Source: a candidate division WOR-3 bacterium (GTDB lineage Bacteria; Hydrothermota; Tepidihabitantia; SM23-42). From it: a stretch of DNA of 64,000 nt. The stretch covers positions 4,285-68,284 of the forward strand of contig JAOUFJ010000006.1 in assembly GCA_029858255.1 (NCBI GenBank), read 5' to 3'. Position 1 is the first letter of the stretch. Each line of letters begins with the position of its first letter. Below are positions 12,564 through 40,800 of this stretch, in pieces. The notes below the pieces were generated by a model. That model was given only the letters and a program-made list of their open reading frames with translations. It ran no database searches and was not told where the DNA came from. The translations under genes were made by a program, and so were the position numbers.

Positions 12564-12651
12564 CTATTTAATTATACTTTTTATCTTTATGCCTGTCAAC
12601 AATAACTGGAATCCATACTTGAAAGTTGAACATAAATGTGTATTATTGGGC

Positions 12652-19838: not shown

Positions 19839-20468
19839 TCACCGTATTATCCCCAACCACTCTCCCAAGAGGAATTGCAGCCTGCCGATGAGCAGGCTTA
19901 TACGAGCCATGACCGTATAGCCGAAAGAAGCGCCGAATCCGAGCATGATGAATATAATACCGAGATTCGCCACCGGTTTGATTATGCCCTTGCGTTCCCT
20001 CGAGAAAAAGAAGTAGACCAAAGTTGATATGACACCGATCAGTATTACTACAGCCCAGAGGCCTGTGTCCCATTTTGCGAATGCATCACGTACCAGCAAG
20101 GTTCCTCGTGTTTGTCCCAGGATGTCTCTCTGGAAGTAAGCAGGAATTGCCACGCCAGAACCCCATCCCAAAACGAATGCGATAGGCAGCCGTATCAGAT
20201 GATTGAATCTGGGGACAAATCGAGCGAAGTAACATAGTGCAAAGAGGAGCGGTACGATATAAAGCAGGTTACCCTGGATGAACAGTGGTTCGATAAGATT
20301 TGGCCGTATTTGATTATGCCAGGTCAGGGCTACAAGATATCCTGCAGAGACGCCGACGAACAAATGTTCGGCAAAGCGGTAGAGTATATTATCACGGTAT
20401 AGAAATGAAAATATGCAGAGGGTCAGGAAAGCAGCAAGCCAAACCCAGGGATCTGGTGATATATTCAT
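19839..20468 (-). CDS. hypothetical multi-pass membrane protein (gene 4 of an uncharacterised 4-gene operon)
   Basis: 209 aa with ~6 hydrophobic helices and no recognisable catalytic motif. The start overlaps the stop of the upstream gene by 4 bp. Confidence 0.5.
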   Translation of the reverse strand: MNISPDPWVWLAAFLTLCIFSFLYRDNILYRFAEHLFVGVSAGYLVALTWHNQIRPNLIEPLFIQGNLLYIVPLLFALCYFARFVPRFNHLIRLPIAFVLGWGSGVAIPAYFQRDILGQTRGTLLVRDAFAKWDTGLWAVVILIGVISTLVYFFFSRERKGIIKPVANLGIIFIMLGFGASFGYTVMARISLLIGRLQFLLGEWLGIIR

Positions 20469-21328
20469 TTCTTCCTCCTGAGGTAGAAATACCCAACATT
20501 TCCAAGAATAATAAAGATCATGATCAATAGATGACCGAGTGACTGTGCGTCCATACCTTGTGAAGCCTTGAATGTTCCTTTTGCATATCCCTTTCTTTGT
20601 ACGAGATTTTCATATTCAGACGCGCCCTTCATTCCTGCGAGGAGCCCGGTGACCTGTCCGGTTTCTACATAAGGATAAACGTCAGCTGCGGATACCGCTG
20701 TTACTCCAACTCCGAGGCGCGCACCGTACCTTGATTGGGCAAAGAGTAACCACTGTCGCCATCCAGGATCGCCCGTTGACAGTGTGACGATCATACTTAC
20801 GTCCCTGTAATTCTTTACCGAACGCATCATTGGCAGCGAATCAAGGGGAGTGCCGTAGTAATCGACAGGGAACACCGCTTTAATGTTTTCGCCCATTCCC
20901 AGGAGTACTGCTGCAACACCGAACTTGTAGCCCAGAAAGGCAAAGTCGACACCATATTGCTTGCTGAAATCGTTAGAGAGTTCTTCCAGTCCCATTTCCA
21001 CCATGCCGGTACCCTGCGGCCAGAGCGCCATGAGAATCACCCTTACGTTCTTCGAAAAGCATTGACGCGATATTGCCAGAAACATTGGGTAGAGCTCAGG
21101 GAGTGACTGTGGATCAAAATCACATGATATCAGAACGGGTTTTGATTCGCTGTCGAGTGCCTCGATCGCTTCGAAGAGTTTTTTGCTTTGAGGCATGACA
21201 TTCACGGGTATTCCTATCGGTATGACAAGAGGTATAGCCACAGCGAGCGCAATAGTGAGAAAGATAATGCGTCGGGGTATTTTTGTTAAAGACTCGAGAA
21301 ATTTCATTTCGAACCTCCTCCGAGCCAT
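20465..21328 (-). CDS. hypothetical bitopic membrane protein: N-terminal TM, ~230-aa soluble domain, C-terminal TM (gene 3 of the operon)
   Basis: 287 aa. TM helices at the N-terminus ([20 protein letters not shown]) and C-terminus ([17 protein letters not shown]). Middle domain unassigned. Overlaps the upstream gene by 25 bp. Confidence 0.5.
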
Positions 21329-21930
21329 GAGCGTTCGATACCGAGGATGATCTTGAGTGCAGTTGAGATACTGCCAAAGGCAACACCGAAAATTATTCCG
21401 CGTTTTGCCGCTGTGTTAGGTACGCTCAAAAGCCATTCAGCGAATTCGGGGAGTCTCGGTGTGATATAATATCCGAACGGGACCATGCCGAGCATTACCA
21501 CGAAGGCAGCCACGAGCAGTATCGTCGCTTCTGTTGTTCGGGCGCGGAACGCACGGTATGCTGCCGACGCCATGTAGAATGCGAGAATGGCGTACATCGA
21601 AGCGCCCAGCGGTAAGATAATGTACGTCCACAGGGTCATGAATAAACTTCCTCTTTGTATACCCCAGAAGATCCCCAGTGTGGCCATTACCGCTAGTCCA
21701 GCCAGAGTAACATAACTGAAATACCAACTTTCCTTTTTCCTCCTGATGCGATTTGTGTGGTGGTCGATGATACTCCCGATCCCGAGAACCCAGGCAAACC
21801 CGACGATCGCGATGTACCAGCGTGTTGTGTGATCATAGAATTGAGTGCTGATAGAGTGCGGTACGAAGAACTGAATGATCATTGCAAGCCCGAGGAACAT
21901 ACATATTATTAGTGGCATTTTCTTATTCAT
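21304..21930 (-). CDS. hypothetical multi-pass membrane protein (gene 2 of the operon)
   Basis: 208 aa with ~6 TMs. RBS AGGAGG in the 14-bp gap to the upstream gene. Confidence 0.5.
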
Positions 21931-21944
21931 CTTATCCTCCTACG

Positions 21945-23039
21945 TCAAATGCTGAATAGATCGCGAATCCACGGCAGGCCAAGTAATATAAGGGCCGAGC
22001 CAGCGAGCAGGATACCCAGGATGATCATTTTGCCCCAGTCCTGGCCTTTTATCGATCCCATGAGTAATGGTTCCTTTGATAGATATGCCGACGCCGCGTA
22101 TAGTTCCTCGCCGATCAGGGTATAGTCACATGCAGTGATGAAGAATGGTAGTTGGAAGACGGAATCGGTTCCGGCGATCTGGATCGCTCCCGTTGCTGCG
22201 CCGGTTTCTGCGAGCACTAAAGATTCGGCCCAGAAATATCCAAGGAAGAGATTCGTTGCAGGTTTTTCCCTCACCATCGTACCGCAGACTGCTGCCGTGT
22301 ACGCCCACTGGTTTTCGGTCAGGAAGTACACATTGTCTGGATTGAAGGCATCCGGTCTGCCCGCATCGGTATAGGCTTCTTTCACTATCTCGCGGGCAAC
22401 GACGTAGACAACCGGACTTCGGTTGGGCACGAGTAATGTCGTGTTGTATTCGGCTGTTTTCTTGGCGACGAGGGATAGTATGTTCAGTGAGGCAAGGGTT
22501 GCGATATCGTCGATCGTAGAAAGGCCAGGAACGTATAGAATGGGTTTACCCATTTCCGTTGCCCTGCCTACCGCGTCTTCCAACGCTTCGAGCCCGGCCA
22601 GTTTTCGTATGAAGAGATTTTTCCCCTTACGTGCGCTGTAGATGAACCAGAATAGTAGTATCGCATATATAATGAACCCGATGAGCACATTGGTCCGGTC
22701 TGTATTGAACCATTGCTGATAGCTCATTGCGTATTCCGATATTTCAGACTGCGCGATAGCGTCTCCATCTTTGATGGCAAGTATTTGGTAGCGGTAGGGG
22801 ATACCATCCTCTGTTTGTGAATCAAGATATTCCTGCTCGAGTCGGTTCAGGCTGGCGACTTTTTCGAGTTCCTCGTCCTGTTCAGCGCGCCAGACTTCAT
22901 AAGCATCGATCGACATGTCTCCGATGTATGGTTCCCAGGAAACGAGGATCCTGCCACCATCATCGTTAGGATTGTCCCTCGCATGCGGTACACCTATTTC
23001 CCCGAATAGCGATACTGCAATGATGAGTATTATTCCCAT
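21945..23039 (-). CDS. hypothetical membrane protein: N-terminal TM, small beta-rich (FN3-like?) domain, second TM, then a ~200-aa domain and C-terminal TM (gene 1 of the operon)
   Basis: ~364 aa. The ATG at 23039 is preceded by AGGAGG-aagtg. The ORF track starts one codon earlier at a GTG. No recognisable family. Confidence 0.5.
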   Translation of the reverse strand: MGIILIIAVSLFGEIGVPHARDNPNDDGGRILVSWEPYIGDMSIDAYEVWRAEQDEELEKVASLNRLEQEYLDSQTEDGIPYRYQILAIKDGDAIAQSEISEYAMSYQQWFNTDRTNVLIGFIIYAILLFWFIYSARKGKNLFIRKLAGLEALEDAVGRATEMGKPILYVPGLSTIDDIATLASLNILSLVAKKTAEYNTTLLVPNRSPVVYVVAREIVKEAYTDAGRPDAFNPDNVYFLTENQWAYTAAVCGTMVREKPATNLFLGYFWAESLVLAETGAATGAIQIAGTDSVFQLPFFITACDYTLIGEELYAASAYLSKEPLLMGSIKGQDWGKMIILGILLAGSALILLGLPWIRDLFSI

Positions 23040-23142
23040 CACTTCCTCCTCACGTGATTGTTGTTGCTATATCATTAAAAATATTGGAAGTATTCCGCGT
23101 GTTTGGATTTCTTGATCACTCGGGATGATATGAAATCGCAAA

Positions 23143-24414
23143 CTATTTGGTGAGTGTAAGATATGATATTAGAAGGGATGCGATGACCGCTGTGATTTCA
23201 AGATAGTCCTGCCAGAATTTGAAAACCTTTCGCGGCACAAAGACTACATCGCCCTCCTCGATCAGCGGATCACTGTCTACGTCGATCTTTTTGTTATCCC
23301 TCTTCACGTATGCGCTTCCCATACTTGCGTCGCCGAGGGGCCCGCCTGCGATGCCGATATAATCAGTTGCTCGCAAGTTGGGTTGGAACGGAAAAGATCC
23401 GGGGGTGACAACTTGGCCCTGCACGTAGACCACGGAATTCACGGATGGAACAACCAGAACATCGCCGGTTTTCAATCTTATGTTCTGTTGGCTGCTCGTA
23501 TCGACAAGAACGTCTGAAAGATTGATGTAGAGTTTATCTTCGTTTCTTTCGATATATGTATGAATTGGGTCAGCCCAGGGTGTAAGACCACCTGCTTTCA
23601 GTACTAGATCGGCGACACGTTCGCCTTCCAGGAGCTCATACAACCCCTCGCTTGATTTTTCTCTCGCCGCAGTGAGTTCTGCTACGCGTAATTCGTACTC
23701 CCTCTTCCCGAAAACCGCACCCTTCACGACCACTGATTGTTCCATTTTTGGGATTATCACCACGTCTCCGTCTTGAACGAACGGATTCGAGAGTGCATCA
23801 CCAGTTTTTTCGAATTCTGTGAGATTCACTTTAGCATATAGGCGCCCTTGTCTTCTCAGTTCAATTTTTGCTCTCGAACCGATTGCATTGATGCCGCCAG
23901 CGTCATCGATGACCCTTGAGGCCCGGTAGATTGGTAACGCCCGGACGACGCCCGGGTTAGTCACTTCGCCGACCACCAGTACATCAAAGGTGCGCATGCC
24001 GATCAGGGTGAGATCCAACCTGAAATTCCTGAGGTATCTGGAGAACGCCCTGGCTACCGAGTCCTTGGCAGCCTTCAGAGTCAATCCGTAGACGGGGATA
24101 GCCGCGACTACATCATATTGAGGTATGTAGGACCCATCCATGGTTGGGAGTGAAGCCACAGGTGTATTCAGGGTCATCTTTCCCTCGAAGGTGACACCTG
24201 TGATATAGGAATAGTTGGTCGCGCCGGTGATCGTCACAAGCAGTGAGTCACCGGGCATGAGCATGTATTCTTCATCAGATACGACCGGTTTTGGAAATGT
24301 TGCTTCCTGGTTTACATCAGATGTTCCTTGTGTTTCGGTTGCATTCGATTGTAGGGCGATGGCAATCAAAACAATGACCAGCAGCGAGAATTTTTTCATG
24401 GTTAAATTATACAA
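23143..24414 (-). CDS. polysaccharide export protein, OPX/Wza family (Poly_export + SLBB domains)
   Basis: Signal peptide. Poly_export-like region YMLMPGDSLLVTI...YGLTLKAAKDSVARAFSRYL. Repeated SLBB-type GDVVIIP / GDVLVVP / GDVVFVP motifs. Confidence 0.7.
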   Translation of the reverse strand: MYNLTMKKFSLLVIVLIAIALQSNATETQGTSDVNQEATFPKPVVSDEEYMLMPGDSLLVTITGATNYSYITGVTFEGKMTLNTPVASLPTMDGSYIPQYDVVAAIPVYGLTLKAAKDSVARAFSRYLRNFRLDLTLIGMRTFDVLVVGEVTNPGVVRALPIYRASRVIDDAGGINAIGSRAKIELRRQGRLYAKVNLTEFEKTGDALSNPFVQDGDVVIIPKMEQSVVVKGAVFGKREYELRVAELTAAREKSSEGLYELLEGERVADLVLKAGGLTPWADPIHTYIERNEDKLYINLSDVLVDTSSQQNIRLKTGDVLVVPSVNSVVYVQGQVVTPGSFPFQPNLRATDYIGIAGGPLGDASMGSAYVKRDNKKIDVDSDPLIEEGDVVFVPRKVFKFWQDYLEITAVIASLLISYLTLTK

Positions 24415-24471: not shown

Positions 24472-24499
24472 TTGACGCGCCATGATATCGAGCTATAAT
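24472..24499 (+). promoter_or_regulatory. sigma70-type promoter for the TonB-receptor / CTD-cargo / PorV-like operon
   Basis: TTGACG (24472-24477), 16-nt spacer, TATAAT (24494-24499). RBS AAGGAGG at 24521-24527 and ATG at 24531. Confidence 0.55.
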
Positions 24500-24530
24500 C
24501 TGTAATAATACTCTAAGAGAAAGGAGGCAT

Positions 24531-27086
24531 ATGAGCAAATTACTACTGATTTTGACTCCCCTAATTCTATATGCAGGTACTGTAGGTAAGATAGCTGGTC
24601 GCGTACTCGACGGCGAGACAAATGAACCTTTGATTGCGGTCGACGTCTATATTGAGGCCCTCGGTGCGGGTGGTGCCACGGATTTGGAGGGGTACTACTT
24701 CATCCTGAATGTTCCTCCTGGTAGTTACGAAGTAGAGGCATCGATGATCGGCTATCGTGCTGAGATAAAAAAGTCGGTAGCGGTTTTTTCTGACCGTACC
24801 ACTTATGTAGATTTCAAACTCGACCCCACGGTTATTGAACTTGAGACACCTGTGGTCGTTGTGGCAAAGAAACCGGTTATTGAGATAGACATGACCTCGA
24901 AAGAGACCCGTATTACACGGGAACAGTTCGACATTACCCCGGTCGAAAAACCTTCAGAAGCCCTGGCTCTCCAGGGCGGGGTAACCACTGACGCGGCTGG
25001 CGATCTCCACGTGCGCGGTGGCCGCAGCGGCGAACTGGCATACTATATTGAGGGGATCGAGGTTTCAAACGCCCTGTTGGGCAGTGCCCCGGTCCTCAAC
25101 AAGAATCTCATCTCCGAAATGTCCCTTCTCTCAGGTACTTTCAATGCTGAGTACGGAAACATAATGAGCGGCGTTGTCAACATCATTACACCGGAAGGTG
25201 GTAGAGAGATATCAACAAATTTAGAGTACACTTCTTTTTTGATCAACTCGTCGCCGTATCGTAAGAAGGATTGGATCAACGATATCGATTCTTCTTACTA
25301 TGACGCGCATCGCACTTTTGACTCCGTCTCGCAGGAGTGGATCTCGGATTACGAGGTGCCTGATTTGATGGATTCCAAGGATTTGCATTTTCTCGGTGAG
25401 ATAAATGGAAGTATCGAAGGGCCGGTTCCCGGTGACCGTTCGACGCGCTTTTTCATCGCCGGCAATTATGCGAATCAGGAGTCCTATCTTCCTTTTGGCT
25501 ACGATCTGACCCGGTCGGTCAATGGCAAGCTGACACGGAGATTCGGTCCCAATTTTAAAGTACTTATCGACGCGCAGTACATCGATGATGAATCGCAGCG
25601 CTACAGCCACTTATACAAGTATTTGTATGATAACTATCTGGTGAGTCGAGAAAAGAGTATGCGTGGTATCATTGGGTTGAATCATTCACCGGCAAACAAT
25701 TTCTTCTACAACGTGCGTGTTGGGTATATAGAAGACAGATTCGATACAAAGGTGCCATCGGATAGTTTAGACATATTTGGCTCCATCGAAGAGCCGGTCA
25801 GTGATAATTACTCTGAATTCTACATCTCGGGTTACCCGCAATTCCGTCAGGAAGTGAAAACCAAACAGTACATTGCGAAAGCCGACTTCAACTGGCAGCT
25901 GGGCAAAATGCACAGCCTGAAATTTGGCGGAGAACAAAGCTTCTACGTTTTTGAACTGGCGAACCGGCAGCAATTGTTCCCGCGGACGCCGATCATATAT
26001 CAGCAGTATGAGCAGAAACCACGTGATGCGGCAATCTTCGTCCAGGATAAGATCGAGCACAAGTATCTCGTGGTAAATGCTGGCTTGCGTTTTGACTACA
26101 GCTACCCGAATGCTGATATGTGGGAGGATATAGAGGACCCTACATCTGATGTCACCGATGTGAAACCGCAGTACCAGGTTTCTCCAAGGCTGGGCCTTTC
26201 TCATCCTATAACCGATGATGCGATGCTTCATTTCGCTTACGGCCATTTCTTCCAGATGCCGCCTTATGAGATCATGTATTTTAACAGCAGCTACGTGGCC
26301 AACCCCGAGGACATCCCGCGGTACGGATTGGTCGGTAACCCGCGCATATTGCCCCAGCGTGCGACCGCGTATGAGGTTGGCATAAAGTATGCGATCCTGG
26401 ATATCTACGGCGTCGATGTTACACTTTTCCTGAAGGATATCAAGAACCTGCTTTCGACGACCGAAGTGCGTACGTTTCCGTACAATTACATAATCTACAC
26501 GAACGATGATTTCGGGAGCGTGCAGGGGATCGATGTTACGTTGCAGAGGGAACTCGTATCCAATATCGGCTTTAGCATTAACTACACTTATCAAGTGGCG
26601 CGCGGTAACCGCTCGTTCGCGATGCAGGGTTTCTATGATGTCTACACTGGTCTGCCCGAGCGCATAAAGGAATACTTCCTTGATTTTGACCGCCGACACA
26701 CGCTCGCGTCAACGTTCCAATTTCTCCTGACAGAGCGGGGCGGTATCGGTGTCAATTTCAGGATTGCGAGTGGATTACCTTACACACCTTATATCAGTGA
26801 AGGCGTAGTCGTTGAAGAGAATTCCGCACGCATGGCCTGGTCGTATTCGCTGGACATCCTTCTTCATCAGGGTATTCAGGTTGGCGGCGCACTGCTTGAG
26901 TTCTTCGTCAGCGCCACGAATCTGACCGATGCAAAGAATCCTCTTTACGTCTATTCACGCAGCGGTGAGCCGTGGGTGACTGGCGAGGAAGCAGGTGGAC
27001 TAATGGGCTCGCAAGACTATATCATCGATCCTTCGAACGTCGGACCAAGAAGAACGATCAAAGCCGGTCTGAGAACAAAACTGTGA
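24531..27086 (+). CDS. TonB-dependent receptor-like outer-membrane protein with N-terminal carboxypeptidase-regulatory-like domain (SusC/RagA-like architecture)
   Basis: Signal peptide. CarbopepD_reg-like GKIAGRVLDGETNEPLIAVDVYIEA...GYYFILNVPPGSYEVEASMIGY. Plug-like region (LHVRGGRSGELAYYIEGIEV). Long barrel-like remainder, 851 aa. Confidence 0.75.
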   Translation: MSKLLLILTPLILYAGTVGKIAGRVLDGETNEPLIAVDVYIEALGAGGATDLEGYYFILNVPPGSYEVEASMIGYRAEIKKSVAVFSDRTTYVDFKLDPTVIELETPVVVVAKKPVIEIDMTSKETRITREQFDITPVEKPSEALALQGGVTTDAAGDLHVRGGRSGELAYYIEGIEVSNALLGSAPVLNKNLISEMSLLSGTFNAEYGNIMSGVVNIITPEGGREISTNLEYTSFLINSSPYRKKDWINDIDSSYYDAHRTFDSVSQEWISDYEVPDLMDSKDLHFLGEINGSIEGPVPGDRSTRFFIAGNYANQESYLPFGYDLTRSVNGKLTRRFGPNFKVLIDAQYIDDESQRYSHLYKYLYDNYLVSREKSMRGIIGLNHSPANNFFYNVRVGYIEDRFDTKVPSDSLDIFGSIEEPVSDNYSEFYISGYPQFRQEVKTKQYIAKADFNWQLGKMHSLKFGGEQSFYVFELANRQQLFPRTPIIYQQYEQKPRDAAIFVQDKIEHKYLVVNAGLRFDYSYPNADMWEDIEDPTSDVTDVKPQYQVSPRLGLSHPITDDAMLHFAYGHFFQMPPYEIMYFNSSYVANPEDIPRYGLVGNPRILPQRATAYEVGIKYAILDIYGVDVTLFLKDIKNLLSTTEVRTFPYNYIIYTNDDFGSVQGIDVTLQRELVSNIGFSINYTYQVARGNRSFAMQGFYDVYTGLPERIKEYFLDFDRRHTLASTFQFLLTERGGIGVNFRIASGLPYTPYISEGVVVEENSARMAWSYSLDILLHQGIQVGGALLEFFVSATNLTDAKNPLYVYSRSGEPWVTGEEAGGLMGSQDYIIDPSNVGPRRTIKAGLRTKL

Positions 27087-27099
27087 ACAAGGAGTCTGT

Positions 27100-29850
27100 A
27101 TGTTATTAATTCTATTTTTGTTTTTCTACCCCGAGGCCGATAAGGCAGTCGGTATTTCGGACAAAGGTGAATTATCCAACGTCACTTCCAACTTCGGATT
27201 GATCGCGAATTTGCATTATTTCACGCCAGCCTTCCACTGGCCGAATTCGGCACCTTTTCAACATCAATACAGTCCCGGATGCGGAATCTTTGCCGCGAGG
27301 AACGATACGGTTATCGAATCTTTCCTGAGTCTGGCAACTCCGGAATGGGCGCCGTTGGAGGGTTCATACGGAACGTTCTATTCAGGTACAGTGACGACCC
27401 CCGACGGCACGCCAGTCATCGCCACATCGGATGACATGGAGACGTGGCCGTTGATAGGAGGAGTACCTACATGGCCGGGACCGTGGCGCAAGGATACCAC
27501 AGGGCAGCAGGTGCCTGGCGAATTTACTTCGGACCAGGATCTTTTCTGTATCTTCAACGACCAGTCTGTCTTGGGGTTGCAGGTGAATCAATCCACTTAT
27601 TCTTACGGCCGTAACTACGCCCAGGATTTTATCTTCTACGATTTTAAAATCTACAATACAAACGGTACATCGATCGATGATATCTATTTTGGTTTCCGGG
27701 GGAATTTCAGGTGCGACTATGACATGCAGGACTATGTCGGACTCTACCGTGACTCTGCCGTGACATTCGTTTATCACTGGGATGCCGATGGTATACCGCA
27801 GGATCCCTGGGAATCGGTGGGTATGATCGGCGTGGCATTTCTTAATCAGCAGATCGACAATTTCCATTACTATCGCAAAGAGGATGAGCCGAGTGATGAT
27901 TTCCGTCTGTTCCCGATAATAGCATCTGACCCCAGTAATCCTAATATCGATCCCAGCCTTTACTTCCATGGTTCGAATGTTTATATTGATGACCCATCGT
28001 TCGTGCAATCCCTGCCACCTGAATCGACAAGCGCATACAATTACATGGTTTCAGCGGGACCCAGAACGATCATGCCTGATGATACGCTTCAATTTACGAT
28101 TGCAGTCATCTGTGGTGAGGATTCGGCAGACTTGTTCGAAAATCTCGAGACGGCGCTCATGATGGCCGACAACTACTTTCTGGGTAGTGGTGCACCAGCA
28201 GCACCGACAGTGCAGGCAGTGGCTGACTACAGGAAGATCACGTTATTCTGGGATGCGCAACCCTCCGAATCATCGACCGACATACTGACCGGTAAACAGG
28301 ATTTCGAAGGTTACAAGATATACCGAAGCGAAGATCTGGGTATTAGTTGGGGAGACGAGATTACCGATCATACAGGGTCTTTGGTCGGGTATGTCCCGCT
28401 CGCTCAATTCGACCTTATCGACGGCATCGAGGGAGTAGACCCGGCTTTCCCGTATCAGTCCCTGGGTCGTGAGACAGGATTGGCGCATACCTTCGTCGAT
28501 ACTACGGTCTATAATGGTATCGAATACTGGTACTGTGTCGCTGCATATGATCAGGGCAATCAGGTTCCTGATTCTCTCGAACCGTCCTATGAGAATTCCA
28601 AAGGACGTCCCAGCGCAGCCAATGTTGTTTCGGCTGTTGCCGCGACAATGCCATCTGGCTATGTCCCGGCCTACATCGAGGGCGGTGATACGCTCGCTCC
28701 TATCGGTGGCAGCTGTGACGGATCGGCGTTGGTGAGAGTCATTGACCCCGCTCAGATCCTACCTCATACCTACCGGATAACCTTTTCGGTTGATTCTGTA
28801 TACCACCCGGCAGAAACGACATGGGTCGACACTACTATGTTCACTCTTTTCGACGTGACCGATCAGGAGACCCTCCTGAGCAAATACGAAATTTCCGATA
28901 ACTCACTCGATAACATTCCTGTAGTCGATGGTTTCAGACTCATCCTTGCGAATTCAGAGAAGACCGTGTCAATGGATTGGACTCAAACCTCAGCCACGCC
29001 AAGCACTTTCGAGTGGTGGGTTTGGTCTGAGCCTTATAGCCCTATGGTTGGCCCGTCCTATATTTATGGTAATCCAAACTTCCGTGTTGTCGTGGACCAT
29101 GATGCGCACTCTGTATTCGGCATTGAAGACGGTTTTGGCGGCGATACCCTGACGATCGAGATGCCATTACGGGTATACGATATAACCGACGAGTTGAACC
29201 CGGTCGACGTCAGCGAGTACTGCTGGCTGCTCGATTATGCATACTCTGACGTCTTCTCACCGCAGATCGAATCATTGTATTTCGGTCCGGAAGGATGGGA
29301 CCTCATTCCGGGCGGGGCTGGTTATAACGGCACGGCTGCCGGGCAAACTGCCGGGTTCTATGATCAGCTCGGGCTGTGGAATGGCGACGCGTCAACGGCA
29401 ACGGCTGTTGTCTACTTTGGTACTCAAAACGGCGACAGCAGCGCAATTCCGCCGGTGGATGGTGATGAATTTACGGTGAAGCTCCTGGCTCCTTTTTCCG
29501 ATTCAATATCATATGAGTTCAGTGCCGTGCCATACGCGATCAACGCCGCGCAGGTACGCCTGGATAGTGTCAGGGTCGTGCCCAACCCCTACATACTTGC
29601 ATCGAAATTCGAGAGCACGCCATATGACCGCCGGTTGATGTTCACGCACCTGCCTGAGGAGTGTAAAATAATGATATACAACGTTGCTGGAGAGCACATC
29701 AACACAATAGAGCACAACAATAATCTGGGCTACGAGTACTGGGATTTACGCACGAAATTCGGTGTGGAAGTGGCATATGGAATGTACATATTCGTGGTTA
29801 GAGCGGATGGCAATGTCAAGGCAGAAGGCAAATTCGTAATAATCAAATAG
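27100..29850 (+). CDS. large secreted hypothetical protein with FN3-like region and T9SS C-terminal sorting domain
   Basis: 916 aa. RBS AAGGAG 8 nt upstream. C-terminus VRVVPNPY...MIYNVAGEHI...GMYIFVVRADGNVKAEGKFVIIK is CTD-like. Internal FN3-like segment (ITLFWDAQPSESSTD...YKIYRSEDLG). Confidence 0.6.
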   Translation: MLLILFLFFYPEADKAVGISDKGELSNVTSNFGLIANLHYFTPAFHWPNSAPFQHQYSPGCGIFAARNDTVIESFLSLATPEWAPLEGSYGTFYSGTVTTPDGTPVIATSDDMETWPLIGGVPTWPGPWRKDTTGQQVPGEFTSDQDLFCIFNDQSVLGLQVNQSTYSYGRNYAQDFIFYDFKIYNTNGTSIDDIYFGFRGNFRCDYDMQDYVGLYRDSAVTFVYHWDADGIPQDPWESVGMIGVAFLNQQIDNFHYYRKEDEPSDDFRLFPIIASDPSNPNIDPSLYFHGSNVYIDDPSFVQSLPPESTSAYNYMVSAGPRTIMPDDTLQFTIAVICGEDSADLFENLETALMMADNYFLGSGAPAAPTVQAVADYRKITLFWDAQPSESSTDILTGKQDFEGYKIYRSEDLGISWGDEITDHTGSLVGYVPLAQFDLIDGIEGVDPAFPYQSLGRETGLAHTFVDTTVYNGIEYWYCVAAYDQGNQVPDSLEPSYENSKGRPSAANVVSAVAATMPSGYVPAYIEGGDTLAPIGGSCDGSALVRVIDPAQILPHTYRITFSVDSVYHPAETTWVDTTMFTLFDVTDQETLLSKYEISDNSLDNIPVVDGFRLILANSEKTVSMDWTQTSATPSTFEWWVWSEPYSPMVGPSYIYGNPNFRVVVDHDAHSVFGIEDGFGGDTLTIEMPLRVYDITDELNPVDVSEYCWLLDYAYSDVFSPQIESLYFGPEGWDLIPGGAGYNGTAAGQTAGFYDQLGLWNGDASTATAVVYFGTQNGDSSAIPPVDGDEFTVKLLAPFSDSISYEFSAVPYAINAAQVRLDSVRVVPNPYILASKFESTPYDRRLMFTHLPEECKIMIYNVAGEHINTIEHNNNLGYEYWDLRTKFGVEVAYGMYIFVVRADGNVKAEGKFVIIK

Positions 29851-29858
29851 GAGGAGTC

Positions 29859-30887
29859 ATGGTGAAAATGATAACACGCATAATGAAAATGGTTGCCCTT
29901 GTGGTCATGATATCCCTTTCCCTGGGTTTCTGTTTCACTAAGGTTGGTACTACAGCGGCACCTTTCCTGAAGATCGAGTATGGTGCGCGGCCTGTGGCGA
30001 TGGGCGGTGCATTCGTGGCTTTGGCTAATGATCCATCCGGGATATACTACAATCCTGCCGGCATTGCTGAGATCAAGACTGCTCACTTCATGGGTGGCTA
30101 TACTGTATGGTTTGCCGATCTGAAATACAACTATGCCACGTTCATATTGCCGACTCAAAGGATGAACTTTGCCCTCTGGGGTTCTTTCCTATATTCTGAT
30201 GAAATTGAGGTTACTACAGTAGAGAATCCTGAGGGTACTGGGCAGGAATTCAGTTATGTAGACGGTCTGCTCGGTATTACGGTGTCAGCATTTCTGTCAG
30301 ACCGGCTTTCAATTGGGATCTCAGGCAAGTATATCCAGCAGAAGTTGTTCAATGAAAGCGCTTCAACATTTGCCCTGGATGTTGGTTCAATACTGCGTAC
30401 ACCTTTGAAAGGTGCACGACTGGGAATGTGTCTGGCGAACTACGGCGGGCGGATGCAGCTGTTCGGTAACGATCTTATCGTGCAGACAGATCCCTGGCCT
30501 GAATATACGGGTAACCCGGAAGTCGAAGCGAGGCTTACAACAGAATCATTTCCGCTGCCGCTCGCCTTCAAACTGGGTATTGCAGTCGACCTTTTTGGTC
30601 CTGGGGAGGCGTTCGCAAATAGTGAAGTTCACCGGGTGACGCTGGCAGTGGATGGAATACATCCAAACGATGGCGAAGAGAAATTACAGTTCGGCATAGA
30701 GTATGGTCTCTATAACACGCTCTTTCTCCGCGGTGGGTACAAGGTCAATTATGATACCCAGAAATACACCGCGGGTGCGGGCATGAAGTTCAGTATCGGA
30801 CAGCGAACCTTCGCATTCGATTATGCCTACGTTGATATGGATGTGCTGGAAGCCACACATCGTTTTTCACTTTTTATCGGGTTCTGA
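29859..30887 (+). CDS. PorV/LptO-like (UPF0164-like) outer-membrane beta-barrel protein, putative T9SS cargo shuttle
   Basis: Signal peptide, then the N-terminal motif GTTAAPFLKIEYGARPVAMGGAFVALANDPSGIYYNPAGIA. I recall this from the PorV/LptO/UPF0164 family. Beta-barrel-like C-terminus ending in F. 9-bp gap after the CTD protein with RBS GGAGGAG. Confidence 0.55.
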   Translation: MVKMITRIMKMVALVVMISLSLGFCFTKVGTTAAPFLKIEYGARPVAMGGAFVALANDPSGIYYNPAGIAEIKTAHFMGGYTVWFADLKYNYATFILPTQRMNFALWGSFLYSDEIEVTTVENPEGTGQEFSYVDGLLGITVSAFLSDRLSIGISGKYIQQKLFNESASTFALDVGSILRTPLKGARLGMCLANYGGRMQLFGNDLIVQTDPWPEYTGNPEVEARLTTESFPLPLAFKLGIAVDLFGPGEAFANSEVHRVTLAVDGIHPNDGEEKLQFGIEYGLYNTLFLRGGYKVNYDTQKYTAGAGMKFSIGQRTFAFDYAYVDMDVLEATHRFSLFIGF

Positions 30888-31087
30888 CACTGTGAAACGG
30901 TGAAAATGAGAAGCGGAGGCCCGGAGAACATGCTTACTATATGACAACCACGATTATGACAATATTGATGAATTGTCGGTTCCTAAATCTGACTATCGAA
31001 TGACCTGGATCCGGCCTACGCTTTCTGTTATTTGTATTTTGGGTTTGTTTAGGATTTCGTGTTCAGTTATTAGTGGAAGGAGGTTGC

Positions 31088-31945
31088 ATGGATAGAAGAA
31101 GTTTTCTGAAAACGATTGGATTTTTGGCACCGGTCGTCGTTTTCTTTGGTAAAATACCACGGTTGCTGTGGGCCGGGAAGCTGGAGCGCGGCAAAAAGAA
31201 TTTCTGGCAGAACGGTGGGTTCACCCAGCCATCCGTAAATATTTCGGGATACGAGAAGGGTATCATAAAGGCGCGGATTGACAATGAATGGCACGATTTC
31301 AATATACGGAACGCCAGTAAGGATTTCGTCGAGTGGAATATGAGCAAGCGTATCGAGTTTCTCGAGCACATAAAGACAGGGCAGATGCCCGGATTTGGTG
31401 GTCCGCATTCCGGCGCGGTCGCCACCTATGGGCTCGGCCGCCTCGATTCGGAGTTCACGCTGAATAACGCGATCAAGGGTATTGGTCTGGCGCCGAAAGA
31501 TGAGAACATCGATACTGCGATCGAGCGATTGCGCGACACTTACGAGAGTTCAATGAAGGAAAAGATGGATGTGCTAAAATCATTCTATGAAGACCCCGAT
31601 TTCATCGATTGGCGCAAGCAGACATCACTCGAGTTGTATGCTACACCCGATTTCGAGACCCATACCTTTCTCAATGTCATGGATAATCCGATCGCGACCC
31701 TGGTCTTTCTTGATATTCCTTCGATTGAGCTGAGGACCATCGCACGAATCGTACATCCGGATGACAAGAATGCATTGCCGTCGGAAAAGAAACTGCTCGA
31801 GTTCGTTAACCTGGCCCACTCGTATATGCACGGAGAATTCCCCCGCCTTTATCCGCTCCTGCTTTTCTACATCGTTGAGGAGTTCGATAACACGCCGGGA
31901 CGCAAGCGCGGTATTAGAGTTGTGCCAGAAAGACCAAAAGAATAG
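31088..31945 (+). CDS. hypothetical protein with twin-arginine (Tat) signal peptide
   Basis: MDRRSFLKTIGFLAPVVVF is a classic Tat motif. The ATG at 31088 has RBS GGAAGGAGG 4 nt upstream. The ORF track begins at a GTG 15 nt earlier. Confidence 0.55.
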   Translation: MDRRSFLKTIGFLAPVVVFFGKIPRLLWAGKLERGKKNFWQNGGFTQPSVNISGYEKGIIKARIDNEWHDFNIRNASKDFVEWNMSKRIEFLEHIKTGQMPGFGGPHSGAVATYGLGRLDSEFTLNNAIKGIGLAPKDENIDTAIERLRDTYESSMKEKMDVLKSFYEDPDFIDWRKQTSLELYATPDFETHTFLNVMDNPIATLVFLDIPSIELRTIARIVHPDDKNALPSEKKLLEFVNLAHSYMHGEFPRLYPLLLFYIVEEFDNTPGRKRGIRVVPERPKE

Positions 31946-32075: not shown

Positions 32076-33023
32076 ATGAAGTTATTATGTACAGTCATGT
32101 TGTTGAGCAGCATGCTCTTCGGTCAAATACTTTATGAAGAGCATTTTACGGGTGGTGCCACTCAGCTGCAATGGGATCCCTGGGTTATATACACGACAAT
32201 GGATGTGGTCAATGATCCCACCACTCCTGGCGGTGATTCGTGGATAGGCAGTGTTTCAAATGATTCTGCTCCGATCGCCGCTATGTACGCGGGCAGCTAC
32301 GACCTCAACGATTATATCGCTGAGGCATGGATTTTTACCGAAGTCAGCCCGGCAATGGGATCATACAACGGGCTATGCGTGAGGATCGACACGGCGACCG
32401 GCGTGAATGCATTGTATCACCTGGTTTCAGATTTTGACAACAGCGCAAGGTTGATGTTGCGTCATATCACCGGTGCCACGCCTTCGATTATCAGGGAATG
32501 GACGTCCGGAGAGATCCCCGGAGGAATACCGGCCTCATCGTCCTGGCACAAGTTCAAGATAAAGATCGTAGCAGATTCGATCTGGGCATATTACGATGAT
32601 GTCGAACTACCAGACTGTCCGTTCATCGACAATCGCGTGACAAAGGGCTTCTTCGGAATATATTTCTTCAATGCACTTGCTTTCAGTTCGACCAACTGTG
32701 ATGATATCGTTGTAACCGGTCCGACCGGTATCAGTGAATATGGTTCCGAGTCAGTAAGTTCCTTCAGAGTCTATCCGAACCCTTTCCGCACCACGACAGC
32801 TATCAGATATCAGATACCAGATATCGGAAATCCGTCACTCATGATATATGATGCGGCAGGACGGCTAGTCAGGGATATTTCAAGTCAGGTATCTGTTATC
32901 GGTGATCAGGTATCGGTAAGCTGGGACGGTCGGGATGCCTCAGGTAATGCGGTTACGCCCGGTGTGTATTTTATTGCCGATGGTATTGGTAACGGACTTG
33001 AAAAAGTGATCAAACTGCCTTAG
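32076..33023 (+). CDS. secreted protein with N-terminal jelly-roll/lectin-like (LamG or DUF1080-like) domain and T9SS C-terminal sorting domain
   Basis: Signal peptide. C-terminal FRVYPNPF...LMIYDAAGRLV...VSWDGRDASGNAVTPGVYFI...KVIKLP is CTD-like. The N-domain assignment is tentative. Confidence 0.6.
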   Translation: MKLLCTVMLLSSMLFGQILYEEHFTGGATQLQWDPWVIYTTMDVVNDPTTPGGDSWIGSVSNDSAPIAAMYAGSYDLNDYIAEAWIFTEVSPAMGSYNGLCVRIDTATGVNALYHLVSDFDNSARLMLRHITGATPSIIREWTSGEIPGGIPASSSWHKFKIKIVADSIWAYYDDVELPDCPFIDNRVTKGFFGIYFFNALAFSSTNCDDIVVTGPTGISEYGSESVSSFRVYPNPFRTTTAIRYQIPDIGNPSLMIYDAAGRLVRDISSQVSVIGDQVSVSWDGRDASGNAVTPGVYFIADGIGNGLEKVIKLP

Positions 33024-33039: not shown

Positions 33040-33068
33040 AGGGGGCAGCTAGGCTGCCCCTTTTTTTT
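33040..33068. terminator. bidirectional rho-independent terminator between convergent CTD-protein genes
   Basis: A8 run, a perfect 9-bp GC stem GGGGGCAGC (33040-33048), loop tag, GCTGCCCCC (33052-33060), then T8. Serves both strands. Confidence 0.85.
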
Positions 33069-34599
33069 ATTCGATCTTGACTATTTTTCGCGTGATGGCG
33101 TCCGTACCGATCTCCGCTCTTAGCAGATATATGCCGGTGGGCAGAGACATGCCGTTCATGTCTCTCATGCTCAGCAGCATGCTATTATTACCGGCATTAA
33201 ACCTGCCACTGTAGATTGTATTGATTTTGCGTCCAAGACAATCGTAAAGAACCAGGTTGATGTGTTGTGCATCATCGAGTAGCAGGCTTAGGTTGATTTG
33301 GTCGCTCACCGGATTACTGACAGAAAGTTCGGTACCAGGAAGTGTATTGATAACGTTTTCTGCTATCTGTGTGCTGTGTCCGGTCGGTTTAAGAAAAGGA
33401 TCACCGAGTAGTGTCATTCCATAATGCCAGCAAACTCTTTCAAGTGTTATGCCGATGGAATCGTAAATGCAGTCAAACCAATAACGGAATGCTTCGCCCA
33501 TTGTTTTGTATTCACCCAACGGTCGGTAGAAGAATTGAAAGTCGAGCATGCTACCGGATTTGGTTGAACCGATCGCACCTATTCCATAGTCTTCGTTAAA
33601 GATGGCCTGACCGCCGCCATAGCCGGCTTGTGTGTAACGGCAGAAAGAGCACGCGAAGAAATTATAGAAGTTTGTTGGCGGGTTCTGGTTTATGTATTCA
33701 TAGGCATAGTAATAATCATACTGGGAACCACTATTATAGGAGAATTGGTGTATGCTGGGTGATGAATGGGCAAATACCGAGACCCATGCCTGCAAGCTGT
33801 CGAGTCTTGTCCGGTATAACGATGCCCTGGTCGTTTCTGGATGCCAGTAATTTGTGGTATCAGGGAAAAGTAGTGATACGTCATTTGCCCACGTCGGAGC
33901 CCAGGGTACCCAGTCGTCATCAACAAAGACGAGCGCACGTTTCTGCAAATTCATCGAACCTTCGCGGTATCTTTTGTCCTTAGCGAAGTATTTTCTCAAT
34001 ACGAGCGTGTCGAGGCCAATACCGGTCGGGAGCAACCTTCCAACATATATTTCGAGGTTGGTGTTTCCAACATGTCCGTCGTATTTTCCGTTACCAGTGC
34101 TTATGGTATCGAGCCAGGTGCCGTCCAGATCCATGTAGAAAAGGTCCATGGGGAACTGGGCCAGACTTCCGCCGTAATCGTATACTTCAAACCATGCGAC
34201 CGGCATGTTTCCAATCATCAGGACACCTTCGATCCCATCGGTGCTGTATATTTCTTGCAGAAAGGTCCGTAGCGTCTCGGGCGTGCCTCCTGAAGTCTGG
34301 TAGTCGAATACGGTGTAGCCCTCGGCGGTCAATGATTGTGCCAGTTGTTCGATCTCGGTTTCCAGATACTGGGCGATGGTTTGTTCCGTAAGAACGGCAA
34401 CATTACCGAGACGGCCGTCACCCTGGTACACTCTGTTCAGTATGTAGTGGAATTGACTGTAAGGATGATCTTCCATCCATTCTTCATAAGTACCGGGCCT
34501 GCTGCCTGATGGATCTGCCCATTTGAGTATTGGAATGTCTTCTATGCCAGCACCAAATAACGAAGTCAGGCAAAACAATATTATCATGAGTCGAATCAT
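33067..34599 (-). CDS. secreted gingipain-like (peptidase C25-related) protein with T9SS C-terminal sorting domain
   Basis: Signal peptide. Region TVFDYQ...IEGVLMIGNMPVAWFEVYDYGG...DLFYMDLDGTW...YVGRLLPT parallels the C25 catalytic-domain pattern of the 1151-aa protein below. C-terminus (NLVLYDCLGRKINTIYSG...GIYLLRAEIGTDAITRKIVKIE) is CTD-like. Confidence 0.6.
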   Translation of the reverse strand: MIRLMIILFCLTSLFGAGIEDIPILKWADPSGSRPGTYEEWMEDHPYSQFHYILNRVYQGDGRLGNVAVLTEQTIAQYLETEIEQLAQSLTAEGYTVFDYQTSGGTPETLRTFLQEIYSTDGIEGVLMIGNMPVAWFEVYDYGGSLAQFPMDLFYMDLDGTWLDTISTGNGKYDGHVGNTNLEIYVGRLLPTGIGLDTLVLRKYFAKDKRYREGSMNLQKRALVFVDDDWVPWAPTWANDVSLLFPDTTNYWHPETTRASLYRTRLDSLQAWVSVFAHSSPSIHQFSYNSGSQYDYYYAYEYINQNPPTNFYNFFACSFCRYTQAGYGGGQAIFNEDYGIGAIGSTKSGSMLDFQFFYRPLGEYKTMGEAFRYWFDCIYDSIGITLERVCWHYGMTLLGDPFLKPTGHSTQIAENVINTLPGTELSVSNPVSDQINLSLLLDDAQHINLVLYDCLGRKINTIYSGRFNAGNNSMLLSMRDMNGMSLPTGIYLLRAEIGTDAITRKIVKIE

Positions 34600-37804: not shown

Positions 37805-40800
37805 TTAATGGATAATGATGATTTTCTCGCTCGTGACATCATTAGCAATGGATAGTACTGCGAAGTAGATTCCTGGCGCCAACCTTCTGCCCTTATCGTC
37901 ATGGCCATCCCAATTTACTGATGTATGCAAGTCAATATGTGATGATAGCCCAGAAAAAGTTTTTACCAGACGTCCAGTAACATCGAAAATTCTCAGGTCG
38001 ACTTCGCCACTCGCATACTGGTTTCTGTAATCATTTACGACGTATCGGATATCAGTTGAATACCTGAATGGATTTGGTCTGACATCGAGAATAAGTGGAT
38101 AGATGTTACTACTGCTATATTCCTCAAGGAAGGTTATGGCTTCAATATTAATGTCATCAATGTAGAATCCTTCTGCAACATCTCCATCATAGTCACTCTT
38201 GAAGGCAATTCTTAGTTGGATTGTGTCGCCGCCCGCGTATTGCCCGAGTGGATATTGGTCTTTGAACCAATCACCCTGAATGGCGCGGCTGCTGTCCAGC
38301 GCACCGCCTGTACCGATGAAGTTCAACGTGTCCGAGCCATTTCCATGCACTATTATGACATAAATGCCGTCAGAACCATAAATCGGTACTTCAAACCAAC
38401 GCATGAAGTTGAGTGTTGAATTATGGTCGACCATGAAAGGAATCGTTTGTATATAGCAATCCATATTATTGAGATAAAGACCATTTGATTCTTGGCCGCA
38501 ATACCATGCGTGATCGGCTGAGAATGCTCGGCGCGTTGAGATATGCCATTGGTTGTTACTTCCGCCTGTTGTCCAGAGGCCGCTGCCCGATTCCATATCG
38601 TCAATGAATCCGGTTTCGCCAATGAGTAATACTATGTCTTGGTTAAAATTGTACGATTCTGTTGCCATATTGAATGACAATTGCGGGTGATGACCAGGTG
38701 GGCAGGAAGATGATACTGCGACATGGAACGGACCAACTGCACATGTTGTGTCCGGTGGAATTTCCCCAGCGCTGACGCTATCGGTAATAACGGTGACGTA
38801 CGGGTCTGTCGAACTCAATGAGATCTGGGTTGTGTGAGCAAAACCATAGCCTGCGTTGGCGATACTAATGTTGATCTGGGCGGTGTCACCTGGCATGGTC
38901 GGGGCATTCGATACGGAAAAATCTGGTATGCTCAACTCCGGCGTACCCACCAAGATGCCGGGGTAGTGGGTTAGTGTCCTGCTTGCTTCTGTTATTTCGA
39001 GTTCAAAACTCAAGGTATGTGCATTTGTTGTATTACCAACGAGAATGGAAAAAGCATGGTCGAGGCATGTTGAGTCCTGCTGATTCAGTGTGCCTAGATA
39101 CTCAATACTGTCCGAAATTATGACGTAAGGATCTTGCGAACGCAGCCGGAAATCCATATTGTTAGCCGTTGCGTTACCGGTATTCTTGATCAGCAGTGAA
39201 AGCAGAATAATTTCGTTGGGATTGGCAATACCGTCGCCATTGCCGAGCGAGTCGTTGAGTATCCATCTCTGGTAATTTACATACGGGCCACTGACCACGG
39301 GAAGGGTCGTCTCCAAAGGAACGTAATTTTGTGCCGTAACAGTGAGTTCAAAATCACCAAGGGTGGCCGGGCTTGCCTGCAGAAATATCTGTCCACTCAC
39401 ATCTGTATAGCCTGCGGCGTAGGATTCATCTGCCTTCATGAGGCAGACCAAGGCGTTTTTGATGGGCGCGTTAGTGTTCTTGGCCCTCACTGAGATGAGG
39501 ATGCTACTGCTACCAAGAGCAACTGATTGGGGTGCAGCTACGGCGATTGATTCTGGTAATGCGGTCCAGACCATCATTTCCGGTTCGCCCAATAGATTTA
39601 ATTGATACTGATGCCAGCGGTAGACATTCTTTTCACGTGAATACGGGATAAAGTATGCTTTACACATTGCCAATGCTTCCCCGATGTGGTAGTTATTCTC
39701 GACGAGCAGTGAGTAGAAGAAACGGCTGTCGAATATGTCGGATATTCCGAACCCAGGATTCCCGGGTGATCCCCACCCGTAGCTTGAATTCCCGACGAAT
39801 GCTACGCCGCCGCCATTTTCGTTATTCATCCAGCCTTCAGCGATGCATGCGAAATCAAAGGCGGCAGTCCAGCAGCCAAGGCTAAAGATAATGCCATAAC
39901 GCGGCGCATTTGTGATCGTATCGAGGTCGATCGTATTGAGGTATCCGACACCTACACCCATGACACTTGTGCTGCCATGTCCGTCGTGATTAATCAGATT
40001 CTGTCCACTCCTTATTGCGGCCATTACGCTTTGACGGTTTTCATTACCAAGTGTTTCATAGAGTTTGGTTACAACAAGATTGGGTAGGAATGATTCTTCC
40101 TCTATACGGTTCTTATGAATCGCCTGGTCGGTGAACGGGCTCTGCCAGAGCACTTCAGCGAGCAAGAGTGCCTTATCGAGATATTCGTTTGGTGGATTCT
40201 TTTCATAGGTCAGGATTTTGTTGACAAAATTCTGTGCTTCTGTTACGGAAGAGACCGGGGCTCTTCCGACCGATAGGTCAGGATATAGATCTATGCTATC
40301 TTCTACCTCACCATACAAACCATCACCATCAAAATTCCAGTTACCCTGCAAATCGGCATAGTACAGGTCACAAGGCAGTGAATCCTCTCGGTTCCAAATG
40401 GAAGCACTGCACGTCATTGCATAGGCAAATCGACAGGGGATCATGTATGTATCACCACCAAGCAGGACGTACTGAATGTTCGAATCAGGCAGAGTCTTTA
40501 TGTAATTACGAATGCACGCAGCGTTATCTTCACCGGTGTAATTCGCCAGTATCCAGTCGACTGTCCTAACGTGTGCCGGTAGTCCTTTCTTAGTTTTCCA
40601 ATCTGCCAACCTCTGGAAAACTGTGTCGAACGGCGGATTACTAATGATGAGATAGGTAATATCATCAGGATCACGAGTTCTTTCATATTCCGAGATATCC
40701 TCTGGATTAATGATCATCTTTTTTAAAAGAGAAGATTGCGCGGTGCGTTTAGTCCCTCCACGGTAGGTGATGCGGAATCTCACTGATCTGTTAAAAATGA

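Follow-up and report, generated by a model that had tools for sequence, protein, structure and literature searches.

A conserved trio of TonB-dependent receptor, large predicted surface protein and PorV-family barrel may form a dedicated uptake complex

We analysed a 64-kb stretch of DNA (64,000 nucleotides, hereafter the window) from a candidate division WOR-3 bacterium (contig JAOUFJ010000006.1, positions 4,285 to 68,284; assembly GCA_029858255.1). It carries three adjacent genes for a TonB-dependent receptor (TBDR), a 916-aa protein that we name BIG, and an outer-membrane barrel of the PorV/PorQ family, called PorV-like here. It is essentially certain that TBDR-BIG-PorV-like is a module conserved across phyla of the Fibrobacterota-Chlorobiota-Bacteroidota (FCB) group. 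As to function, we favour with moderate confidence the reading that the trio forms a TonB-dependent uptake complex resembling those of polysaccharide utilization loci (PULs), in which the surface component would be delivered and held by a dedicated PorV paralog. Such a trio joins two known principles, a type IX secretion system (T9SS) carrier-cargo pair and the TonB-dependent transporter with a surface accessory protein, in an undescribed configuration: no description of it was found in the literature searched, and the Caldithrix genome paper does not mention it.

The three genes were read as open reading frames (ORFs) in the window; the protein parts listed with them are predicted.

24531-27086, plus strand: TBDR gene, 851 aa; signal peptide, CarboxypepD_reg-like domain, TonB-box-like ETPVVVVA, plug and barrel
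27100-29850, plus strand: BIG gene, 916 aa; leader, supersandwich (galactose-mutarotase-like) to about residue 360, fibronectin type III (FN3)-like region at about 366-500, two further beta-sandwich regions, C-terminal domain (CTD) at about 820-916
29859-30887, plus strand: PorV-like gene, 342 aa; signal peptide, conserved N-terminal hatch GTTAAPFLKI...YYNPAG, 14-strand barrel, long extracellular loops at 114-132 and 197-235
24472-24499, plus strand: putative sigma-70-type promoter, TTGACG-16-TATAAT, matching 11 of 12 consensus positions
24433-24406, minus strand: divergent promoter-like site, back to back with the putative trio promoter, matching 12 of 12 consensus positions
33042-33060: G+C-rich hairpin between convergent genes, the sole terminator-like site downstream of the unit

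All three genes are co-oriented, with gaps of 13 nt between TBDR and BIG and 8 nt between BIG and PorV-like, and each has its own Shine-Dalgarno sequence (AGGAGG 5' of 24531, AAGGAG 5' of 27100, and GGAGG 5' of 29859, the last overlapping the BIG stop codon). These coordinates and gaps, together with the 11/12 promoter site, confirm the layout of three tightly spaced genes behind a near-consensus promoter that a model had described from the letters of this DNA, hereafter the original prediction. The two promoter-like sites are the best matches in 8.9 kb, and both lie inside the 117-bp intergenic region. Promoter-like sites overall number 14 compared to 12.6 in shuffled sequences, a count no higher than chance, and it is therefore the position and quality of the sites, not their number, that carry weight. 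On the plus strand, no terminator was found 3' of 30887 before the hairpin, so the transcription unit may reach 33023 and add the genes at 31073-31945 and 32076-33023. Judged from these signals, the trio forms one predicted transcription unit, possibly with those two genes as an extension.

Conservation of the trio was surveyed with a BIG profile searched against GTDB species representatives, which returned more than 578 relatives. The counts given here come from 80 fetched loci, in which genes were annotated by hidden Markov model and phmmer searches and the taxonomic labels of metagenome-assembled genomes (MAGs) are those deposited. A PorV-like gene lies directly downstream of BIG in 68 of 71 evaluable loci (96%), a module-specific TBDR directly upstream in 59 of 65 (91%), and the full trio in the order TBDR-BIG-PorV-like is present in 54 of 59. 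The median distance between neighbouring stop-to-stop ORFs of the trio is about 0. Hosts comprise WOR-3, Calditrichota (including a Caldithrix abyssi MAG), Marinimicrobia, Ignavibacteria, Melioribacter, KSB1, Rhodothermales, Eisenbacteria and various Bacteroidota. Because the synteny recurs in homologous loci, the arrangement in the window is not a product of chance, and the operon is not an isolated case but belongs to a large family of conserved modules.

This conservation spans near and distant relatives. BIG is 100% identical to OEV79_04570 from a candidate division WOR-3 MAG (a look-up of the 342-aa protein by exact sequence gave no match), and the trio neighbourhood as a whole is syntenic with the 2.3-Mb WOR-3 contig CP070705.1. 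The distant 5.2-Mb genome CP070762.1 encodes a full-length BIG homolog of 1001 aa (30% identity, E 9e-100), directly upstream of a PorV-like gene whose product is 45% identical to that of the window. Among the exceptions to the synteny that were examined, loci L029 and L072 keep the genes in one cluster but in rearranged form, and L002 retains a BIG-PorV-like pair without an upstream TBDR. Locus L009, from a Cloacimonetes MAG, also has no TBDR upstream; there BIG is followed by a 388-aa ORF (11564-12727) that fails to match the PorV-like family at a threshold as lax as E<10 and may represent a replacement of the carrier.

The 342-aa protein matches the PorV/PorQ family model NF033709 over positions 1-325 of 326 (180.8 bits, E 4.9e-53, cutoff 90), in agreement with the original prediction, which had associated its N-terminal motif with PorV. 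It falls short of the models for PorV proper, namely the equivalog NF033710 (64.9 bits, cutoff 250) and Pfam PF19572 (19.8 bits, cutoff 27), both of which match the N-terminal half only, and of the PorQ equivalog NF033711 (69.4 bits, cutoff 220). PorP_SprF is absent from its Pfam matches at E<=0.01. The AlphaFold2 (AF2) model (mean per-residue confidence, pLDDT, 87.5) contains a hatch at residues 30-72 and 14 strands, the number that had been proposed as support for a PorV-like fold. Its top structural matches in the PDB are the Flavobacterium johnsoniae PorV chains 8gl6_F and 6h3i_F (template modelling score, TM, 0.70), and a profile of the family finds PorV as its sole natural match there (E 2e-24). 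Conservation is highest in the hatch (0.72), with extracellular loops at 0.59-0.60 compared to 0.59 for the strands. These profile matches identify the protein as a member of the PorV/PorQ family that is an ortholog of neither PorV nor PorQ.

The same data bear on whether the barrel could act beside the TBDR as a FadL-type channel that passes a small or hydrophobic substrate, with BIG reaching the surface through the general PorV. Its FadL-like fold with hatch and NPAG motif would suit such a role, and both Toluene_X (FadL/TodX, PF03349) and UPF0164 are matched weakly. However, the Toluene_X score is 15.3 bits against a cutoff of 29.7, FadL/TodX structures match at a TM of only about 0.55, and the family profile finds no FadL in the PDB at E<=1. 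Furthermore, the 96% linkage is specifically to a CTD protein and holds in L002, where the TBDR is missing. We consider such a channel very unlikely, and the unrelated porin or FadL member that the original prediction had named as its refuting case does not describe this protein.

Some genomes carry more than one module, which addresses the possibility that the PorV-like gene is the housekeeping porV, the other refuting case of the original prediction, with an unrelated receptor and an ordinary cargo gene as its neighbours. Some MAGs have two trios or trios in tandem (L032 with L077; L039 with L066; L059; L067); L059 and L067, one from an FCB group MAG and one from a Calditrichota MAG, are each a contig on which two trios, complete or nearly so, stand in tandem. 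Copies from the same genome are 27-43% identical in all three proteins, compared to 57-75% between a copy and its counterparts in other genomes (46-75% for L039, which is linked to GH94, a glycoside hydrolase (GH) family). For L032, all three proteins have the same best partner locus (L080); for the other copies, best partners differ between proteins. In two-module genomes each PorV-like copy matches the subtype of its own BIG and TBDR, and the PorV-like proteins are mutually diverged. Modules thus duplicate and diverge as units. Across loci, the pairwise identity matrices of the three proteins correlate with r 0.78-0.86 (0.86 for TBDR versus BIG), which is not proof of physical interaction because any co-inherited operon would show such a correlation.

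A housekeeping role would agree with the finding that the 64-kb window holds no other PorV-family ORF. Against it stand the failed PorV and PorQ equivalogs, the diverged copies, two or more to a genome, that each come with a separate BIG and TBDR, and the conservation of the trio across phyla, which extends to MAGs labelled Flavobacteriales, Cytophagia or Chitinophagales, lineages that carry canonical PorV. We find this explanation highly improbable; the proposal of a dedicated rather than genome-wide PorV is supported by the failed equivalogs, the linkage to BIG and the diverged copies in two-module genomes.

BIG defines a large protein family: a search of its profile against 1.84 billion representative proteins (E<=1e-30) yields 1,482 clusters at 50% identity. 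All named homologs are "hypothetical" or named only after a sorting domain, and none has a Pfam domain. The original prediction had described BIG as an FN3-containing protein with a T9SS CTD. At the level of fold this description holds, as the AF2 model and profile-profile comparison support both FN3-like and CTD folds, and the modelled CTD has seven strands (residues 825-915) of a divergent T9SS type; at the level of domain models it does not, with no Pfam domain in BIG, fn3 included, and 16.5 bits against a cutoff of 23 for the type A CTD model TIGR04183. When aligned with the type A CTD profile of neighbouring proteins by hhalign, the BIG CTD scores 91.5% probability (E 8.5e-7). Within the family, one of 46 members matches PF18962 (cutoff 27 bits) and 16 of 46 match CHU_C (PF13585) at E<=0.01 (lowest E 1.6e-5); the CHU_C match does not separate type A from type B because genuine type A neighbours also match CHU_C weakly. 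BIG itself matches neither of the type B models, CHU_C and TIGR04131.

The N-terminal part of BIG is more variable. Many paralogs align only from about residue 300 onward, and the head domain is therefore variable; Pfam scans of seven long paralogs, aimed at identifying these heads, found no domain. The supersandwich fold of BIG matches non-catalytic N-domains, no catalytic domain was found, and single-sequence and profile searches of the PDB returned nothing useful. In homologs from other phyla the leader is an ordinary signal peptide, unlike that of the WOR-3 clade described below.

Could BIG and the PorV-like barrel instead correspond, outside Bacteroidia, to one of the attachment-complex pairs, PorZ-PorQ or PorU-PorV, and process or anchor other cargo with CTDs, with the receptor as an incidental or structural partner? 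BIG has no match to PorU (NF033707), and its match to PorZ (NF052228) is confined to the C-terminus (14.5 bits, cutoff 260), so that neither model reaches beyond the CTD. Its model contains no beta-propeller, C25 or caspase-like domain. The modules are multi-copy, with variable heads and substrate-specific neighbours (starch, GH94, LacI), which is not expected of core machinery. Linkage of the TBDR in 91% of loci and its co-divergence with BIG and PorV-like also speak against such a role. We regard this alternative as distinctly unlikely. The narrower candidate of BIG as a divergent PorU in a housekeeping porU-porV pair was rejected for want of an NF033707 match and a C25/caspase-like fold, and is also disfavoured by the presence in the window of a separate C25 protein with a CTD. 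That protein (37805-41260, minus strand; 1151 aa) combines a type A CTD with Propeptide_C25, Peptidase_C25 and MAM-like domains; at 102 bits on the PorU model (cutoff 420), it would be a T9SS cargo of gingipain type or else a divergent PorU. Its gene is missing at the syntenic position in CP070705.1 (L001), where an aminotransferase gene is directly followed by a GGDEF gene.

The 851-aa protein scores 92.5 bits on the TonB_dep_Rec barrel (PF00593, cutoff 27) and is borderline for Plug (23.2 bits, cutoff 23.9) in the Pfam scan. In an alignment of 63 module-linked homologs, the conserved elements are EVVV.AERP, which resembles a TonB box, and the plug motifs RGGRSGE and ISGTFNAEYG..MSGVVNI.TK, and the C-terminal residue is F or W in 51 of 63 members. 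By these features it is a genuine TonB-dependent transporter in architecture, of a module-specific subfamily. Of the original description of a CarbopepD_reg-plug-barrel protein of SusC/RagA type, the CarbopepD_reg domain and TonB barrel stand, the plug is borderline, and the SusC/RagA assignment is ruled out: the NCBIfam model TIGR04056 gives 52.2 bits against a cutoff of 368, over N-terminal residues 20-280 only. No match to the SusD family was found in any neighbour scanned.

Subtypes of the module, defined as clusters by BIG with neighbours counted on the same strand, correlate with accessory genes. Type A CTD proteins with CBM20 (a carbohydrate-binding module, CBM), X25 or SusE-F-like domains occur in 18 loci overall and GH13 amylases in 14, and two clusters are rich in both and include LacI regulators, which are found in nine loci. 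GH94 phosphorylases lie directly downstream in five loci. One BIG subtype is linked to BNR-repeat CTD proteins (six of seven loci) and another to MAM-domain CTD proteins (four of four). ATP-binding cassette (ABC) sugar transporters, SurA-like peptidyl-prolyl isomerases and M16 peptidases are also recurrent neighbours of the trio. The subtype of the window comprises 12 loci from WOR-3, Calditrichia, Marinimicrobia and Ignavibacteriaceae.

The CBM20, GH13, GH94, LacI and ABC sugar transporter neighbours point to nutrient import, which export and anchoring would serve. The cargo-specific export and surface-anchoring module of the original prediction therefore keeps its carrier and anchor role and changes its emphasis. 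More specifically, the fixed linkage of BIG to a co-diverging TBDR, the carbohydrate-associated fold of its head and the PUL-like neighbours suggest for BIG the role of the subunit that captures substrate at the surface in a TonB-dependent uptake system.

These same observations limit the room for BIG as a surface enzyme or adhesin that has its own carrier in the manner of SprB-SprF, while the TBDR is merely co-regulated and takes up products without forming a complex. Pairs of carrier and cargo genes have precedents (PMC12618676), an active site could be made up of the many invariant D, H, W and R residues in the BIG N-domain, and L002 shows that the BIG-PorV-like pair can stand without a TBDR. 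On the other side, the supersandwich resembles non-catalytic domains, the TBDRs are a dedicated subfamily co-diverging with BIG at the correlation given above, and the intergenic gaps are near zero. We judge a separate enzyme or adhesin unlikely.

Two genes downstream of the trio may belong to the same unit.

31073-31945, plus strand: 290-aa protein, Tat-like (twin-arginine-type) leader MDRRSFLK, likely start ATG 31088, no family match
32076-33023, plus strand: 315-aa type A CTD protein, unannotated N-terminal domain of about 225 aa, TIGR04183 30 bits (cutoff 23)

The 290-aa protein has homologs only in WOR-3 loci (L001, L003); its gene is inserted between those for PorV-like and the 315-aa protein and is possibly co-transcribed. 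In all 12 loci of the subtype to which the window belongs, a homolog of the N-terminal domain of the 315-aa protein adjoins the trio, which identifies this protein, from sequence and position, as a fourth conserved companion; the original prediction of a single cargo was in this respect too narrow. Its profile matches the CTDs of PorU and PorZ in the PDB. A CBM66 match was non-significant (E ~0.13) and was not used as evidence.

Besides BIG and the C25 protein, the window encodes at least four type A CTD proteins, and a T9SS-type pathway would therefore be in use; the WOR-3 genome appears to make heavy use of CTD-dependent secretion. Three of these proteins have bodies that are otherwise unannotated.

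33067-34599, minus strand: type A CTD protein
53752-55491, minus strand: type A CTD protein
55798-57462, minus strand: type A CTD protein

Taken together, we propose the following mechanism for the uptake complex. BIG would be exported first through Sec and next through the type IX pathway, and its conserved, divergent CTD would be recognised by a carrier of its own, the 342-aa PorV-family barrel, which would take BIG from the translocon and then tether it at the cell surface. The tethering is modelled on PorQ holding PorZ and on PorP/SprF-like carriers holding type B cargo. Tethered BIG would capture substrate with its carbohydrate-binding-type supersandwich head for the adjacent 851-aa TBDR, which would import it as a TonB-dependent transporter. 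BIG would in this way functionally replace the SusD/SusE-type surface lipoproteins of Bacteroidota PULs, and the 315-aa protein would be a fourth, accessory part of the outer-membrane machine in the window's subtype. The module would have diversified into substrate-specific subtypes, of which that of the window would be a widely conserved one.

The steps of this proposal differ in strength. By analogy with known carriers, and with indirect support from its conserved extracellular loops and the 96% gene linkage to a CTD protein, the PorV-like protein is likely the cognate carrier or anchor of BIG, and coupling of the BIG/PorV-like pair to import is plausible. We infer that BIG depends on the T9SS, that the barrel binds its CTD and that it stays at the surface, and likewise how it cooperates with the TBDR and what kind of substrate is taken up.

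Besides the limit on the identity correlations noted above, several observations weigh against an uptake complex of this kind. The argument for a physical tie among TBDR, BIG and PorV-like is drawn entirely from genes and predicted folds. The CTD of BIG, below the type A cutoff, is divergent and by its model scores assignable to neither type A nor type B, and no CTD in the PDB is matched by the BIG profile. In the WOR-3 clade the BIG leader (window 27100-27140) is conserved, very short and without basic residues (MLLILFLFFYPEA|DKA), and an in-frame stop nine codons upstream excludes a longer N-terminus. Core T9SS genes (sprA, gldK/L/M/N, a porU ortholog) were not seen in the 64-kb window, nor were tonB/exbBD among its scanned ORFs. 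No carbohydrate-active enzyme stands among the window's own neighbours of the trio, and a glycan substrate is therefore extrapolated from paralogous subtypes and from a generically carbohydrate-associated fold. With M16 peptidases and one S51 peptidase near related subtypes, a peptide substrate is equally possible.

How does the trio compare with known systems? Like the SusC/SusD(/E/F) PULs of Bacteroidota, it co-encodes a CarboxypepD_reg-extended TonB-dependent transporter with a large, predicted surface-exposed protein of binding type, and occurs as many substrate-specific paralogs beside CBM proteins, glycoside hydrolases, LacI-type regulators and inner-membrane sugar transporters. Unlike them, it lacks SusD and its TBDR fails the SusC/RagA model; its surface partner would be a barrel-held CTD protein rather than a lipoprotein, and its accessory proteins bear T9SS type A CTDs instead of lipoprotein signals. 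The Slam clusters of Proteobacteria (TbpA-TbpB-Slam, HpuA/B) combine a TBDR, a surface lipoprotein for substrate capture and a dedicated 14-strand barrel, with genes that are often clustered. They share the three-part logic of the trio in what would be a convergent form; the barrels (DUF560 versus PorV) are unrelated, a lipoprotein takes the place of the CTD cargo, and the phyla and export routes differ.

The carrier part of the trio has its closest parallels in the T9SS. Type A cargo is served by PorV, whereas type B cargo is served by cognate PorP/SprF-like carriers, typically encoded just downstream, which then anchor it (PMC10994853, PMC12618676, PMC9143113); the CTD binds PorV loops, and carriers afterwards anchor their cargo (PMC10994853). 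PorQ, a paralog of PorV, holds PorZ (PMC12618676, PMC9143113, PMC10994853). With such carrier/anchor pairs (PorV with type A cargo, PorQ-PorZ, PorV-PorU, SprB-SprF) the trio shares a 14-strand FadL/PorV-fold barrel combined with a beta-sandwich CTD protein, and with type B cargo/sprF-like genes it shares a carrier gene directly downstream of the cargo gene. Its carrier is likewise apparently cognate to one cargo, which it would be expected to retain at the surface (PMC12618676, PMC9143113, PMC10994853). It differs in that the barrel belongs to the PorV/PorQ family rather than PorP/SprF and is no ortholog of PorV or PorQ, that the BIG CTD would be a divergent third flavour, that the pair is fixed to a TBDR, and that the hosts lie mostly outside the classes in which the T9SS has been studied. 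Given the PorQ paralog and the cognate PorP/SprF carriers, the statement of the original prediction that a genome normally has one PorV overstated the novelty (PMC12618676, PMC9143113, PMC10994853).

A further parallel is BamG-BamH of the Bacteroidota BAM complex, where a FadL-fold 14-strand barrel binds a large extracellular protein via extracellular loops and abuts a larger barrel (PMC12578637). The trio would likewise combine a FadL-fold barrel, a large and predicted extracellular partner and a larger neighbouring barrel. In BamG-BamH, however, the larger barrel is BamA and not a TBDR, the BamG structure is further from the trio barrel than PorV is (TM 0.44 versus 0.70), and the BamH-contacting loops of BamG are not conserved, in contrast to the loops of the PorV-like protein.

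Other genes of the window were noted in passing.

5807-8485, minus strand: 892-aa subtilase
9698-11545, minus strand: amino-acid permease fused to a C-terminal phosphotransferase system (PTS) EIIA-2 domain
16781-18988, minus strand: 735-aa fusion of a patatin-like phospholipase, POTRA and an Omp85 barrel
19839-24414, minus strand: divergent cluster of a Wza-like Poly_export/SLBB protein, DUF6754 and three ORFs (209, 287 and 208 aa) without family match

The S8 match of the subtilase is spread over residues 175-772, which implies a large insertion inside its catalytic domain. The patatin-POTRA-Omp85 fusion has what we take to be a type Vd (PlpD-like) secretion architecture. The divergent cluster is syntenic in L001. 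For the Wza-like ORF a TTG start is listed, which the 12/12 promoter-like site at 24433-24406 overlaps, and the true start is therefore probably the ATG near 24399 (MKKFSLL).

We tentatively extend the proposal to the family as a whole and think it possible, with less confidence than for the complex itself, that the modules are SusD-less PULs, a new class of TonB-dependent uptake machine across the FCB group in which a T9SS-delivered capture subunit is held permanently by a PorV paralog and the trio has co-diversified by substrate (for example starch, and beta-glucan or cellobiose). If true, this would be the first T9SS carrier acting as a structural subunit of a nutrient importer, and the role of PorV-family carriers would widen from secretion to that of a permanent subunit of an import machine. 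Such modules could explain how FCB lineages beyond the classical Bacteroidia capture glycans or peptides at their surface without SusD-type lipoproteins; Ignavibacteria, Calditrichota, Marinimicrobia, KSB1 and WOR-3, abundant groups of sediments and oceans, are among these lineages. The finding would also give a name and a testable function to the BIG family with its at least 1,482 clusters at 50% identity. Modules of this kind appear to exist in cultivated species, given the loci in MAGs labelled as Caldithrix abyssi, Melioribacter and Ignavibacterium, and in uncultured FCB genomes the trio would serve as a genomic marker for substrate-utilisation loci.

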